DNA of 64,000 nucleotides, from IMG/VR virus record IMGVR_UViG_3300025678_000005. One strand, written 5' to 3'. Within the stretch, counting starts at the first letter, position 1; every line of letters begins with the position of its first letter. The notes under the pieces were generated by a model that had not been told where the DNA came from, did no database searches, and saw nothing but the letters and a program-made list of their open reading frames with translations. A program made the position numbers and the translations under genes. This document shows, piece after piece, positions 28,509 to 40,103 of this stretch. The stretch comes from a virus (Duplodnaviria > Caudoviricetes).

Positions 28509-28581
28509 CACCCTCGCCCCGATTCGAACAGAGATCTGACAATTTTGAAGATTGTGGTTTTACCAATTAAACTACGAAGGT
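28509..28581 (-). tRNA. Opal suppressor tRNA (anticodon UCA), probably Trp-accepting
   Basis: Cloverleaf ACCTTCG/CGAGGGT; D arm GTTT-AATTGGTA-AAAC; anticodon arm ACAAT-CTTCAAA-ATTGT; T arm CTCTG-TTCGAAT-CGGGG. A1-U72 and G73, short variable loop, no encoded CCA. Confidence 0.92.
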
Positions 28582-32432: not shown

Positions 32433-32471
32433 AAGAGGAGTATGCTGAAAATCCTTTAAAAGAGTAGGCAA
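32433..32471 (+). promoter_or_regulatory. Leader RNA motif, copy 1
   Basis: AGGAG-TATGCT-GAAAA-TCCT-TTAAAAG-AGTA-GGCA. Confidence 0.55.
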
Positions 32472-32941: not shown

Positions 32942-33061
32942 ATGGGAAATGAAATATAGTAGTAAGCAAAAAACAACAATGGATTTACTTAAGTTGTTCT
33001 AAAATGGAACATGTTAGATAGTTATTAGCAAACAAAAAACAACAACTTAAAATGCAAAAAT

Positions 33062-33718
33062 ATGGAAACAAACGAATTACAATTGACTGAAAAAAGCACT
33101 GGAAGATATAAAAGTGCATACGAGTTTATTGATGCATTAAAACCGCAGGACATGTTGTCGGTAATCAGAATGTGCCCAAGCGAAAAATTGAAGATTTTCA
33201 AAAGCGAAACAAACATAGAATACCTTGAGAAAGGATTAGAAGCCATGAAACAGGCAAGAAATGAATATTTAAAGCGAATTAAAGAAAAGACGGTAAGAAG
33301 GGATAATGATTTAATAAGGTGGAATAAAAACCTTGTCGAAGATGCCGAATCATATTTAAACGATTTAAAAACAAAAGAAATTATAAAACGAGGGGCTACT
33401 CAATCAGAATTAGATAGTTTTTTGAAAGCATTGGAAACCAAATATGCTTCTGACATAATAGGTGTTGACACGTTTTATAAAAAACTTACAGAGCAACAAG
33501 TTGATTACTTATTGCTTAAACTAACCGACAATTGCAAATATAAACCGTTTTTAAGAGAGTGTGACTTTAAGACGAAGGCAGATTATCGACGATATAGGAT
33601 AAAAACCGACGTTATTCAAAATCTTTTGTATCAGAAAACAAAGAAATATCCTTATTTTGATATTTTCGAATCCGAACTGAATAATTTTTACAATACAGTC
33701 AATAAAAACAACAATTAA
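33062..33718 (+). CDS. Hypothetical protein
   Basis: 218-aa ORF with more CG-containing codons than its neighbours. Confidence 0.7.
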   Translation: METNELQLTEKSTGRYKSAYEFIDALKPQDMLSVIRMCPSEKLKIFKSETNIEYLEKGLEAMKQARNEYLKRIKEKTVRRDNDLIRWNKNLVEDAESYLNDLKTKEIIKRGATQSELDSFLKALETKYASDIIGVDTFYKKLTEQQVDYLLLKLTDNCKYKPFLRECDFKTKADYRRYRIKTDVIQNLLYQKTKKYPYFDIFESELNNFYNTVNKNNN

Positions 33719-34061
33719 AATTTTATTAAAATAAGCCTAATTGAAGACAGATTAGAATTTAGTTTAATGGTAGATACATTTCATGGTACAGATGAAGAAA
33801 TGTATGTTGCTTTTAGTCAAGTTAGTGAGGCTATAAGAGAACTAAGAAGATTAAGAGATAAATGTGATGAATTAAATAAAAGAATATTTGAATTAGAAAA
33901 CAAAAATTAAAGATTATAGATACGAAAAGAGAGCAAATTATGGAGTTTCTCGAAACATTGCCGACGCCAATTGACGTTTTGAGTCTTGTCGATATCGGTG
34001 ATGTATAAATGGCGTTGCCGACTTTGAAACAAATAATTATCAATTAAAAACGAAGATAGAT

Positions 34062-34328
34062 ATGAAATACAAACTTACAATTACAGACGGATACGGTAAT
34101 GAACATTTATACAATGTTGTGCGCAGTTCTTCTGATGAGCCAAAAAATTTGAATGACTTCATTTTAGAAGCCCTTTCAATTAGTGAAGATAAAAGACAAT
34201 TGCCGTTTTTAATTCAATGCCCTAATGGATTAGAAGTACATCCTTCAATTAAAATGAAGTTTGAAAATTATGGTAGTTCGTTGTTTGGTGATAAACTCGA
34301 AGCAATGATGGTAACGTGGCGTGATTGA
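34062..34328 (+). CDS. Hypothetical cassette protein (TGA stop)
   Basis: 88-aa ORF whose start lies inside a hairpin. Confidence 0.65.
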   Translation: MKYKLTITDGYGNEHLYNVVRSSSDEPKNLNDFILEALSISEDKRQLPFLIQCPNGLEVHPSIKMKFENYGSSLFGDKLEAMMVTWRD

Positions 34329-34410
34329 ATTGCGCACAACGTTCCGATTATTTGCGTTCGGTGGGAATTAAAACCACTGAACCTCATTTTAAAAACAAAA
34401 CTTTAATAAT

Positions 34411-34671
34411 ATGCAAAACGATGATTTGAAAAATAACACCCCCACTGACGCAAATAATGTATTAGTGGCTGGGCTTTCTCTCATTCAAGCTAAATATGCC
34501 GCAATGATTGAAAGTAAAAAAATAAGACACTGTTCCTTTATGGATGATGAATATCTCTACTATAAAAATGGTTGTTGGTTCACTCATGATGATTATCAAT
34601 TACCAGATGTGTGTTTTTTAAATGAACAAGAACAAGGGTGGTGGAATAATAGTTGGTCGGTGGTGTCATAG
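34411..34671 (+). CDS. Hypothetical cassette protein
   Basis: 86-aa ORF whose start lies inside a hairpin. Confidence 0.65.
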   Translation: MQNDDLKNNTPTDANNVLVAGLSLIQAKYAAMIESKKIRHCSFMDDEYLYYKNGCWFTHDDYQLPDVCFLNEQEQGWWNNSWSVVS

Positions 34672-34686
34672 CCTTGCCACTAACAT

Positions 34687-34722
34687 AAGGAGGTTGCCGA
34701 AAATCCATAAAAGAGTAGGCAA
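34687..34722 (+). promoter_or_regulatory. Leader RNA motif, copy 2
   Basis: AAGGAGG-TTGCC-GAAAA-TCCA-TAAAAG-AGTA-GGCAA. Confidence 0.55.
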
Positions 34723-34744
34723 AACAAAAAAAACAAATAAACAA

Positions 34745-34987
34745 ATGGAAAAATTAAAAAAAATCCAAGTAGAAGCAGCATCAGAAAAAGCTGCTATGGT
34801 TCTTTACAGGTATTTAAATAGTTTAAATACCATTGATTTTGAAGGATCAATTTTTATTGAAAATCTTCAAAATGAAATTTTTGGAGCCGATCTTAATCCT
34901 GTTGATGATTCGTTTAATTTAATCATCGAAACAGATTTAAGAATATGTAAAGTTTCATATGAAATCAGTACTTATAGATACAATTAA
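34745..34987 (+). CDS. Hypothetical protein
   Basis: Likely start at ATG 34745 within ORF 34622..34987. Confidence 0.6.
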   Translation: MEKLKKIQVEAASEKAAMVLYRYLNSLNTIDFEGSIFIENLQNEIFGADLNPVDDSFNLIIETDLRICKVSYEISTYRYN

Positions 34988-34989
34988 AT

Positions 34990-35217
34990 ATGAAACCTAT
35001 TGTAAAAAATGTTAAAGTGTCGGCCTATTCTCCAAAGGCCATGTCTATGTTACTACCTTATATTGGAGATATTAAAGGTAGCATTTTTGATCCTCGTGCT
35101 TTTAAACACGAACTTTATTTTATGATAAATAAATATAATTTAGACCCAGTAAAAGATAGTTTTACTATCAATATTTCTGCTGGAAATAAATTGTATACTT
35201 TTCAGTATAAAGATTAG
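34990..35217 (+). CDS. Hypothetical protein
   Basis: 75-aa ORF. Confidence 0.6.
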   Translation: MKPIVKNVKVSAYSPKAMSMLLPYIGDIKGSIFDPRAFKHELYFMINKYNLDPVKDSFTINISAGNKLYTFQYKD

Positions 35218-35240
35218 TTAAATACTTTAAAACTAAAAGT

Positions 35241-35615
35241 ATGGTAGAAGATAAAATTGCTAATCTGCTTATAAAAAATAAATCCTATTTAATTGATGTC
35301 ATTTCAATAAGAATTAAGGATTGTATCAATATGCTCGCACAATCCATAGAAGAGATTTATGATGTAAATGAGACTTATATTTTTTATAAGCGCAATGGAT
35401 TAGATTTAGCCTATAATAAGAAGTCTGCCAAAGAAATGAAACTTCTTATTGAAAATTTGAAAAAAGAAGATATTGAAGCAATTAATGCTATACAGTATGC
35501 TTCTTTAATTAAAGCTTTGGCGATAGTTGGTAATAAAACTATCGACCCATATGAATATGAACTTATTCTTGCTTATTGTATGGATAAACTCATACAAATT
35601 AACCTTACAATATAA
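35241..35615 (+). CDS. Hypothetical protein
   Basis: 124-aa ORF. Confidence 0.65.
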   Translation: MVEDKIANLLIKNKSYLIDVISIRIKDCINMLAQSIEEIYDVNETYIFYKRNGLDLAYNKKSAKEMKLLIENLKKEDIEAINAIQYASLIKALAIVGNKTIDPYEYELILAYCMDKLIQINLTI

Positions 35616-35638
35616 TAGGGTATCCTATTATATTTTTT

Positions 35639-35671
35639 AAAGAGTGTGCTGAAAATCTTAAGAGTAAGCAA
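35639..35671 (+). promoter_or_regulatory. Leader RNA motif, copy 3
   Basis: AAGAGTG-TGCT-GAAAA-TCTT-AAG-AGTA-AGCA. Confidence 0.55.
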
Positions 35672-36030
35672 ATTAAAATAATGTATCATGAAAGAATATT
35701 ATTTATTACCAGATGGGTCTTTATCTAATACAAGACCTGTCGATTATGATAGAAGATGAATTCTATTGTAATAACAGTTTTAAAGTTTGTACTGTTAAAC
35801 GAACTTTATGTTTTATTTATTAACTTGTTAAACTAAATTATATTTATGCTAAAGAAGTATTATCTTACTACCAATGGAAATATCCTAGATACAAAAAAGA
35901 AATGTTTTTTAACTCCAACTGGACACTTCTTAAGAGATGTATCTGAAGAAGAACTGGGTTACTATACTAAAAAATTAACCCCAATTATTCTTTTTAAAAA
36001 TATTAATAAACAGTAAAAAAGTTTAAAAAT

Positions 36031-39862: not shown

Positions 39863-40103
39863 GTTAGGCATCTGTAAAAATTACGGTTATGAGAACAGAT
39901 GGTAAAAAAGAAATTTTAACGTATTGGGTAAGGCATACGAATGAAAAGAAACACTACTTTAAATGGGATTGGAGTATGATATGGATACTTGTAAAATATA
40001 GACTTTTGTGGGGAATGAAAATTTCTTTTACAGTAATAAAGGCAATAGATAGAGAAGAATACTTGGTGCAGTTTTTCGCCGAGTAATTTTTATTGTGCCT
40101 AAC
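39863..40103 (+). mobile_element. Solo cassette-like unit containing ORF 39889..40086
   Basis: GTTAGGCATCTGTAAAAATTAC ... GTAATTTTTATTGTGCCTAAC complementary ends (GTTRRRY/RYYYAAC). Confidence 0.55.
39889..40086 (+). CDS. Hypothetical cassette protein
   Basis: 65-aa Trp-rich ORF, all Trp as TGG. Confidence 0.55.
   Translation: MRTDGKKEILTYWVRHTNEKKHYFKWDWSMIWILVKYRLLWGMKISFTVIKAIDREEYLVQFFAE

Follow-up and report, generated by a model that had tools for sequence, protein, structure and literature searches.

Two tandem gene units in a phage genome

The window analyzed here is a stretch of 64,000 nucleotides (nt) from the IMG/VR phage record IMGVR_UViG_3300025678_000005 (Duplodnaviria; Caudoviricetes), itself a linear sequence of 138.5 kb with ~27% G+C that is estimated to be ~75% complete. 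The window contains two small gene units in tandem, A (33997-34340) and B (34341-34684), that resemble the gene cassettes of integrons. Each consists of a spacer of 5 to 6 nt, a hairpin of ~112 nt, 2 nt, an arm beginning with GTT or ATT, the body of an open reading frame (ORF), and a complementary arm that ends in AAC (Table 1). The spacing around the hairpins is asymmetric: they begin 5 nt after ATC (33994-33996) in unit A and 6 nt after AAC (34338-34340) in unit B, and each ends 2 nt before GTT or ATT. The hairpin loops contain both start codons (34062 and 34411), and codons 1 to 17 cross the 3' hairpin arm into the 5' end arm.

The loop of hairpin A, the hairpin that carries codons 1 to 17 of ORF A, contains a conserved A/T-rich motif (TTTGAAAC...TTAAAA) as well as the ATG, and hairpin B holds the leader peptide MQNDDLKNNTPTDANN together with its ATG. 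Where the window has the GATATC junction at the left edge of the array, other phage contigs with an ORF A unit carry (Y)TAAC-G-N4-6. Residues 26 to 88 of ORF A are also found in other phages without the cassette format.

An initial annotation, made from the sequence alone, had proposed tandem units with complementary ends, each preceded by a hairpin of ~110 nt with asymmetric spacing, start codons and the first 17 to 18 codons inside the hairpins and reading into the end arms, and an array that stops at AAC and is followed by a resident leader motif. All of the sequences that it quoted are present, and each of these features is in place; the hairpin stems appear in an RNA fold, and the leader motif is the DUF805b RNA.

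Table 1. Features of the cassette array and its surroundings (positions are those of the window)
Feature	Position	Strand	Description
Left array junction	33991-34001	+	GATATC plus 5-nt spacer GGTGA; ATC (33994-33996) replaces the TAAC of other units
Hairpin A	34002-34113	+	L-box-like stem of ~19 bp, arms 34002-34020 and 34094-34113, 73-nt loop
ORF A	34062-34328	+	88 amino acids (aa), no Pfam or PHROG family
Unit A 5' end arm	34116-34128	+	GTTGTGCGCAGTT, R'-like, translated VVRSS; annotated span 34116-34129, paired with 34327-34340; compensatory changes in relatives
Unit A 3' end arm	34328-34340	+	AATTGCGCACAAC, R''-like, overlaps the TGA stop; right edge of the mobile unit is AAC 34340
Unit B spacer	34341-34346	+	6 nt, GTTCCG; identical spacer before the same hairpin family in L026 and L032
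Hairpin B	34347-34458	+	~18 bp plus one bulge, arms 34347-34365 and 34441-34458, 75-nt loop
ORF B	34411-34671	+	86 aa, PHROG 3474 (unknown function)
Unit B 5' end arm	34461-34475	+	ATTAGTGGCTGGGCT; GTT in relatives
Unit B 3' end arm, array end	34670-34684	+	AGCCTTGCCACTAAC
DUF805b RNA motif (Rfam RF02914)	34687-34721	+	Full length, 48.6 bits; outside the cassettes, leader of the resident gene starting at 34745
Possible degenerate third unit	39863-40103	+	GTTAGGCAT...65-aa ORF (39889-40086)...ATTGTGCCTAAC; only a vestigial upstream hairpin

Covariation of the stems

All four stems of the two units are in the minimum-energy structure predicted by RNAfold for 33980-34700 (z score, -2.1). Homologs of ORF A occur in 21 phage contigs and those of ORF B in 12, with no contig common to both sets. 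When 16 homologous ORF A units from 16 phage contigs were aligned, 96.6% of cells paired, compared with 30 to 46% when the partners were slid; 11 pairs are altered on both sides, and the covariation score was matched by none of 500 shuffles. Covariation extends to 7 of the 17 pairs of hairpin A. Compensatory changes in these units include GTGCGCA/TGCGCAC to AGCCGTA/TACGGCT and TATAAATGG/GAACATTTATA to TATTGCTGA/TTCAGCAATA.

Units were then defined by a detector that calls a hairpin, a GTT arm within 3 nt of it, and the complement of that arm, ending in AAC, 90 to 1,400 nt downstream. The 138.5-kb genome yielded exactly four G+C-rich units, two in the window and two at genome positions 105466-106094, against 0 to 2 matches in shuffled genomes; the same detector reported dozens of units in relatives. 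At noncanonical end-stem positions of units detected by Watson-Crick pairing only, G.T outnumbers A.C by 62 to 8 on the sense strand, mostly from a single conserved position, and the hairpins contain conserved G.T pairs too. Because the noncanonical pairs are G.T on the sense strand, this is probably the strand that folds.

A separate 12-bp stem can be drawn inside ORF A (GACTTCATTTTA / TAAAATGAAGTT; ~34155-34166 with 34250-34261, alignment columns 181-192 / 276-287). It is invariant and predicted in 16 of 16 homologs, shows no covariation, and may only mirror conserved codons.

A common architecture in 67 units

We compared 67 nonredundant units with unrelated ORF content. Their end stem is 14 bp long, with positions 1 to 3 invariantly GTT/AAC; at positions 4 to 10 and 12 to 14, all four Watson-Crick pairs occur and mismatches are nearly nil, and position 11 is G.T in 62 units. 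The two ends of a unit pair with each other at 10.6 of the 11 variable positions, and the adjoining ends of neighboring units pair at 6.1 of 11, for which the random level is 6.6. The asymmetric spacing seen in the window is general: the preceding AAC stands 4 to 7 nt before the hairpin in 60 of the 67 units, and GTT follows the hairpin within 0 to 3 nt in every one.

Each unit contains one sense ORF of 52 to 263 aa (median, ~87), which fills 76% of the unit, against 17% for antisense frames. The ATG is within the hairpin in 44 units and directly after the GTT arm in 23, and in 60, the terminal TAAC supplies the stop codon (TAA) or the stop falls no more than 12 nt from the 3' arm. The cargo of larger cassettes includes N6_N4 DNA methyltransferases, which are likely counter-defense genes. 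Hairpin loops share the A/T-rich motifs TTTGAAAC and AAACTTAAA, scored as enriched words; a host-type Bacteroidota promoter (TTTG ... TAnnTTTG) was not found in the loops by eye. No promoter was established in the loops, no T-run follows the stems, and stem sequence varies between cassettes.

Usual attC sites, the recombination sites of integron cassettes, span 57 to 141 nt and have R''/R' boxes of the form RYYYAAC/GTTRRRY. The sites described here have an invariant AAC/GTT, boxes such as GCCTAAC/GTTAGGC, a spacer, and an L-like stem. Their spacers are asymmetric (5 to 7 versus 1 to 3 nt), their loops are 35 to 80 nt, and their span is ~145 to 150 nt, with no conserved extrahelical bases established.

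Boundaries and turnover of the mobile block

With each relative, shared sequence stays within 33991-34342; among those that are 92 to 93% identical to unit A, homology starts at 33991-34003 and stops at 34340-34342. With one relative (L002), identity is 92% over 33991-34342, and nothing further is shared within 2.5 kb on each side. Unit A also occurs in a Weeksellaceae metagenome-assembled genome (93.5% identity, confined to 34003-34340) and in Petrimonas sulfuriphila DSM 16547 (91.8%, confined to 33991-34342). The sharpest case is a pair of loci (L014 and L016) with 99.1% identity exactly from TAAC to TAAC and nothing else in common within 4 kb. The mobile block is a spacer, a hairpin, and a GTT-to-AAC segment that encloses the ORF, with both boundaries at AAC. 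Homology ends at the terminal AAC on one side and at the AAC that precedes the hairpin on the other, so the hairpin belongs to the ORF that it initiates.

The initial annotation had placed the crossover after the hairpin, between G and TT, and had looked to relatives for precise gain and loss at that point. Homology does break at exact boundaries, but these are the AACs of the ORF A units, before the hairpin and at the end of the unit. It had also expected shuffling to produce N-terminal fusions; because each hairpin opens its own cassette on the 5' side and does not serve as attC for the unit upstream, ordinary cassette shuffling would make none. Fusions have nevertheless accumulated over evolution: at least six ORF bodies with no relation to one another follow hairpin B and its leader MQNDDLKNNTPTDANNVL in the same frame. 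Three of these joins have differing arm pairs; three others keep one pair (GTTAGTGGCTGGGCT / AGCCTTGCCACTAAC) around unrelated bodies, as the annotation had anticipated for a cassette system. Hairpin families also reappear with different arms inside arrays. Together, the shared leader and the families with exchanged arms mean that hairpin modules are reused and rejoined to new genes over evolutionary time, comparable to the single attC family of a sedentary integron.

The second array of the genome (units at 105466-106094; array at L051 2444-3094, genome 105444-106094) holds two cassettes whose ORFs begin after the GTT arm, not in the hairpin. It lies 19 to 22 nt after an ATG-TGA that reads as the start of a repeat-protein gene if TGA encodes Trp, and its right flank includes TATTATATATC, a sequence similar to the attI-like site of relatives. 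In a relative of the repeat-protein gene that is 99% identical (L052), the last cassette is another one, of the ORF B family, at the identical junction of TAAC with AATTATATTGG; here, the unit B cassette end AGCCTTGCCACTAAC abuts a flank unlike that in the window. A different last cassette at an identical junction indicates that cassette content turns over at a fixed site.

A DNA search of "phages" with window positions 33000-36000 and a protein search with ORF A gave no match. For an empty version of the window site, no relatives of the flanking genes (33062-33718 and 34745-34987) were found, and the one contig of a close relative (G005) leaves the region uncovered.

Two other accounts of the locus were set aside. 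The frames at 33941-33996 and from 34685 onwards join in frame, as if the array interrupted a gene; the downstream part is the DUF805b leader, and the join was treated as a coincidence. Single-strand transposition of the IS200/IS605 type was dropped, with no Y1 transposase in the genome of the window and one in just one of four relatives.

An Xer-like recombinase at the end of arrays in relatives

Four complete large relatives (265 to 640 kb) each have one gene of the Phage_integrase family; two of these genes are intact and two are broken, and every one lies 40 to 95 nt downstream of the terminal AAC of a cassette on the same strand. A co-occurring tyrosine recombinase, which the initial annotation had suggested seeking, is accordingly present in relatives. 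One of them (G004) has at least 24 units that span the terminal repeat up to the recombinase, and another (G003) has at least 12 over 10 kb; in both, ~50 nt separate the end of the array from the start codon of the recombinase. Scanning with the G004 protein gave 33 full-length loci (60 to 81% identity), with 60 units upstream and co-oriented and none downstream. At 27 of 27 loci, a conserved site in which ..YATAAC is followed by TATWATATATAC stands after the cassette end, ~53 nt before the recombinase ATG. The enzyme is 267 aa long, and its best models are XerA/XerC-like, below every curated NCBIfam cutoff (for TIGR02249, 158 bits against a cutoff of 265).

Cassettes still adjoin both of the broken recombinase genes (L010 4372-5150 in G002 and L037 1522-1968 in G001). 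A deletion and a frameshift disrupt one of the two around the HxxR motif, and the other lacks its N-terminal part.

Related sites in cultured phages

Among cultured phages, Cellulophaga phage Ingeline and Polaribacter phage Freya encode the integrases nearest to the recombinase (36 to 38% identity). Polaribacter phages Freya_5, Freya_9, and Freya_10 have flanks that are 100% identical around differing blocks of 0.3 to 3.2 kb that end in AAC, and the differences are located exactly at a site 49 nt upstream of the integrase. Integrases of the Ingeline and Freya type were read by the authors of that work as a sign of temperate life, and cassettes go unmentioned (PMC8776804).

In Polaribacter phage P12002L (29150-32300 and 38000-38960, minus strand; L080), short-loop versions of the site stand between methyltransferase genes and consist of ..GCTAAC, 5 to 6 nt, a hairpin of ~40 nt, 2 nt, and GTTAGG.. 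with own-end complementarity. The unit detector gave nothing in this phage because of the short hairpin loops, and inspection of the intergenic sequence revealed the sites. One of them is the published P12002L_attC1; a site of this class in P12002L was called by IntegronFinder and HattCI, and IntI1 recombined other phage attC sites (PMC9892861).

Interpretation and alternatives

We consider it probable, at roughly 0.7, that the window units are mobile gene cassettes and that the integron-like system to which they belong circulates among Bacteroidota phages, prophages, and chromosomes, with the linked Xer-like recombinase as the likely enzyme. This retains the earlier reading of mobile, integron-like cassettes shared among Bacteroidota phages and gives up the side of the hairpin at which it placed the cut. 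A cassette of the proposed system would comprise a 5- to 7-nt spacer, a 19- to 21-bp hairpin with a 35- to 80-nt loop, 1 to 3 nt, the GTT arm, a small ORF, and the complementary arm ending in (T)AAC. Expression signals would lie in the loop, joined in two thirds of cassettes by the start codon and ~17 codons. Cutting and joining would take place just past AAC, with the sense strand most likely cleaved between AA and C, and the likely enzyme is the small Xer-like tyrosine recombinase, encoded in larger relatives at the downstream end of the main array, ~53 nt past the attI-like site. On excision of a cassette as a circle, the 14-bp complementarity of its own ends would create one continuous R-box/L-box hairpin.

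In integrons, the bottom strand is cleaved in the 5' RYYYAAC box, between AA and C. By analogy, a folded sense strand would predict a crossover at the AAC before the hairpin, which matches the observed boundaries. A site-specific role in DNA is well supported by the array context and by these boundaries; we infer that the substrate would be single-stranded DNA. The genome of the window, with two clusters of two cassettes and no recombinase gene in the assembled 75%, resembles in this respect the clusters of attC sites lacking integron-integrases (CALINs).

Several observations weigh against this interpretation. No tyrosine recombinase (Phage_integrase match) was found in the window, as the initial annotation had noted of integrases, or in the rest of the 138.5-kb record, and cassette activity in this phage would have to draw on the unassembled 25% of the genome, a coinfecting phage, or the host. 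The annotation had proposed hairpins of single-stranded DNA; with DNA parameters, window junctions fold no better than shuffled sequence (z scores, -0.9 to +0.7), and hairpin A is absent from the minimum-energy DNA structure. The G.T bias of the sense strand fits RNA structure equally well. A single crossover point per site fails to account for all of the mosaicism. The recombinase is shorter by ~48 residues than VchIntIA (2a3v), such that its residues 172 to 210 align to 174 to 260, where the IntI-specific domain lies. That domain (the I2 helix, between patch III and box II) is held to be necessary for recognition of folded attC. Since the nearest cultured relatives have been read as lysogeny integrases (PMC8776804), the conserved site beside the recombinase could be an attP. 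Finally, P12002L_attC1 was the sole tested site that IntI1 failed to recombine (PMC9892861), a failure that is neutral as regards a dedicated enzyme.

We lean slightly toward a broader proposal, that these cassettes represent a second, independently built kind of integron. Cassette arrays of large Bacteroidota phages and of their hosts would be run by an Xer-like recombinase without the IntI insert, the recombination hairpin would also serve its cassette for expression by supplying the leader, start codon, and N-terminal peptide, and the 14-bp own-end arms would make the excised circle a better substrate than sites within the array.

That the stems instead act in mRNA is the best-surviving alternative, and we regard it as unlikely. 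The end-to-end stem would stack on the leader hairpin to give a quasi-continuous helix of ~35 bp for each cistron of a polycistronic early transcript, with a role in RNA processing (RNase III type), stability, or translational control, and shuffling would proceed via short homology at conserved motifs, as with the promoter early stem-loops (PeSLs) of T4-type phages. A transcript naturally forms the own-end pairing across the whole ORF; the RNA minimum-energy fold has all four stems, and the DNA folds are unremarkable; the wobbles are compatible with G.U on the sense strand only (62 versus 8), with fixed conserved G.U pairs in both stems; the loop holds the translation start and conserved A/T-rich motifs; and PeSL-mediated shuffling and mini-circles are known in T4-type phages (PMC2839356 and PMC4122927). 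However, a function in mRNA leaves unexplained why arrays always end ~53 nt before a tyrosine recombinase at a conserved site, why 99%-identical copies lose homology exactly at AAC, and why the AAC-cut blocks of cultured isolates lie beside an integrase. The junctions of different cassettes, moreover, share just 6 to 7 nt (GCTAAC-G), which is insufficient for homologous recombination. An mRNA role may exist in addition to the DNA role.

It is improbable that the units are ordinary integron cassettes, as in a CALIN, that came from a bacterial integron and owe their movement to a host IntI. The AAC/GTT cores and the boxes similar to GCCTAAC/GTTAGGC are what such an origin would leave, and it would accord with the detection of a P12002L site by IntegronFinder/HattCI and with the activity of IntI1 on other phage attC sites, yet P12002L_attC1 is the one site that IntI1 did not recombine (PMC9892861). 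The enzyme in the 33 loci is Xer-like, below all NCBIfam cutoffs, and without the IntI insert; the ORFs are on the strand opposite to the canonical one and start inside the hairpin; and the span of ~145 to 150 nt, the 35- to 80-nt loops, the 14-bp own-end arms, and the asymmetric spacers all depart from ordinary cassettes. Functionless chance inverted repeats in A+T-rich DNA, to which the many short inverted repeats of the region and the modest z scores of single-sequence folds might point, are refuted by the comparative data, namely, the covariation, the architecture conserved in 67 unrelated units, and the shuffled controls.

Comparison with known systems

Integrons, especially sedentary chromosomal ones with homogeneous attC families and the "inverted integrase" group, are among the closest known systems. 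Shared with them are tandem single-ORF cassettes and sites that combine an R box, whose core is AAC/GTT, with an unpaired spacer, an L-box stem, and a variable loop. The 5' end of a cassette complements the box at its own 3' end, the signature of crossover in the R box (own ends, 10.6/11), and a tyrosine recombinase gene and a conserved insertion site stand at one end of the array, here in relatives only. Hairpin families that recur in arrays and DNA methyltransferase cargo are common to both as well. The differences are equally concrete. The phage-linked recombinase, at 267 aa, is Xer-like and without the IntI-specific insert and so falls outside the IntI clade, and its gene is co-oriented with and downstream of the cassette ORFs, which point toward it. 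Those ORFs are on the G.T-wobble strand, and for two thirds of them, the start codon is in the hairpin. The hairpin is at the 5' end of its own cassette, an arrangement unlike that of an ORF upstream of its own attC and served by a common Pc promoter. Own-end arms are 14 bp, not 7, and the ends of neighbors pair at random level beyond the core. Loops of 35 to 80 nt and carriers that are large phages of the virulent type further set the system apart.

Xer enzymes without the IntI insert have a precedent for acting on related substrates: CTX-phi integrates at dif via a folded single-stranded hairpin, and Acinetobacter plasmids carry pdif modules, discrete sets of genes between short sites that such enzymes can move. 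In contrast to Xer/dif systems, no dif-like site (11-bp arm, 6-bp spacer, 11-bp arm) is evident at the junctions, and there is a single recombinase gene.

The CALINs of virulent phages are similar in being attC-like clusters without a nearby integrase and in their methyltransferase cargo (Qi et al. 2023, PMC9892861). The layout of P12002L_attC1 (..GCTAAC-GGCTAC-hairpin-AT-TGTTAGGC) is identical to that of the sites described here. Both arrays of the genome have two tandem attC-type sites with no integrase near, where a CALIN is defined by at least two, although by analogy only, as the sites are noncanonical attC. In that study (PMC9892861), the sites were taken as canonical attC and tested with IntI1, and long arrays, an Xer-like platform, own-end arms, and in-site start codons are not described. 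The PeSLs of T4-type phages, the nearest phage-specific precedent, are likewise stem-loop regulatory modules that flank small nonessential ORFs in plastic regions and mark the breakpoints of modular shuffling and mini-circles (PMC2839356 and PMC4122927). They differ in consisting of a sigma-70 promoter and a terminator stem-loop and in moving by homologous recombination between similar copies, whereas cassette stems vary but covary, own ends pair, breakpoints are at one trinucleotide, and a tyrosine recombinase is linked. Our literature searches for an Xer-like cassette platform found no description, and only PMC9892861 and the PeSL papers were relevant.

If the Xer-like enzyme moves these cassettes, cassette capture would not depend on the IntI insert by which integrons are held to be defined, with a bearing on the origin of integrons from Xer recombinases. 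The system would also provide a concrete mechanism by which large Bacteroidota phages, among them crAss-like and jumbo phages, rapidly turn over their small accessory genes, and the same mechanism would explain gene flow between these phages and host chromosomes. Its design is unusual in that a recombination structure constrains coding sequence, and the site encodes a start codon and a shared leader peptide. The instance in the window is a small cluster without a nearby integrase and derives its interest from the wider system, which is testable in cultured Polaribacter and Cellulophaga phages.

Genomic setting and minor features

Units A and B sit 2 kb inside an arm of plus-strand genes, amid small ORFs of unknown function. 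Genes to the left of ~32 kb (window 1-32000) are on the minus strand, and the large late genes among them are open only if TGA is read as Trp (4 to 20 in-frame TGA codons per ORF under table 4). The right-hand genes, which include a family A DNA polymerase and a helicase, are on the plus strand and use the standard code; in this arm, ORF A included, TGA is a stop. A second full-length copy of the DUF805b RNA lies at 32435-32470 on the plus strand (45.5 bits; gathering score, 35.6). Because each copy is 22 to 24 nt upstream of the start of a plus-strand ORF, DUF805b is a recurrent 5' leader motif of the phage's resident early genes.

The possible third unit is, with low confidence, a decayed cassette, and its end complementarity is just 8 to 9 bp. 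Approximately 1 kb past the second cassette array, outside the window, a G+C-rich insert contains a 382-aa ORF (L051 4095-5243; genome, ~107.1 to 108.2 kb) with TnpB/IS605-OrfB-like C-terminal motifs (zinc finger and RuvC-like). A tRNA gene is located at 28509-28581 on the minus strand.

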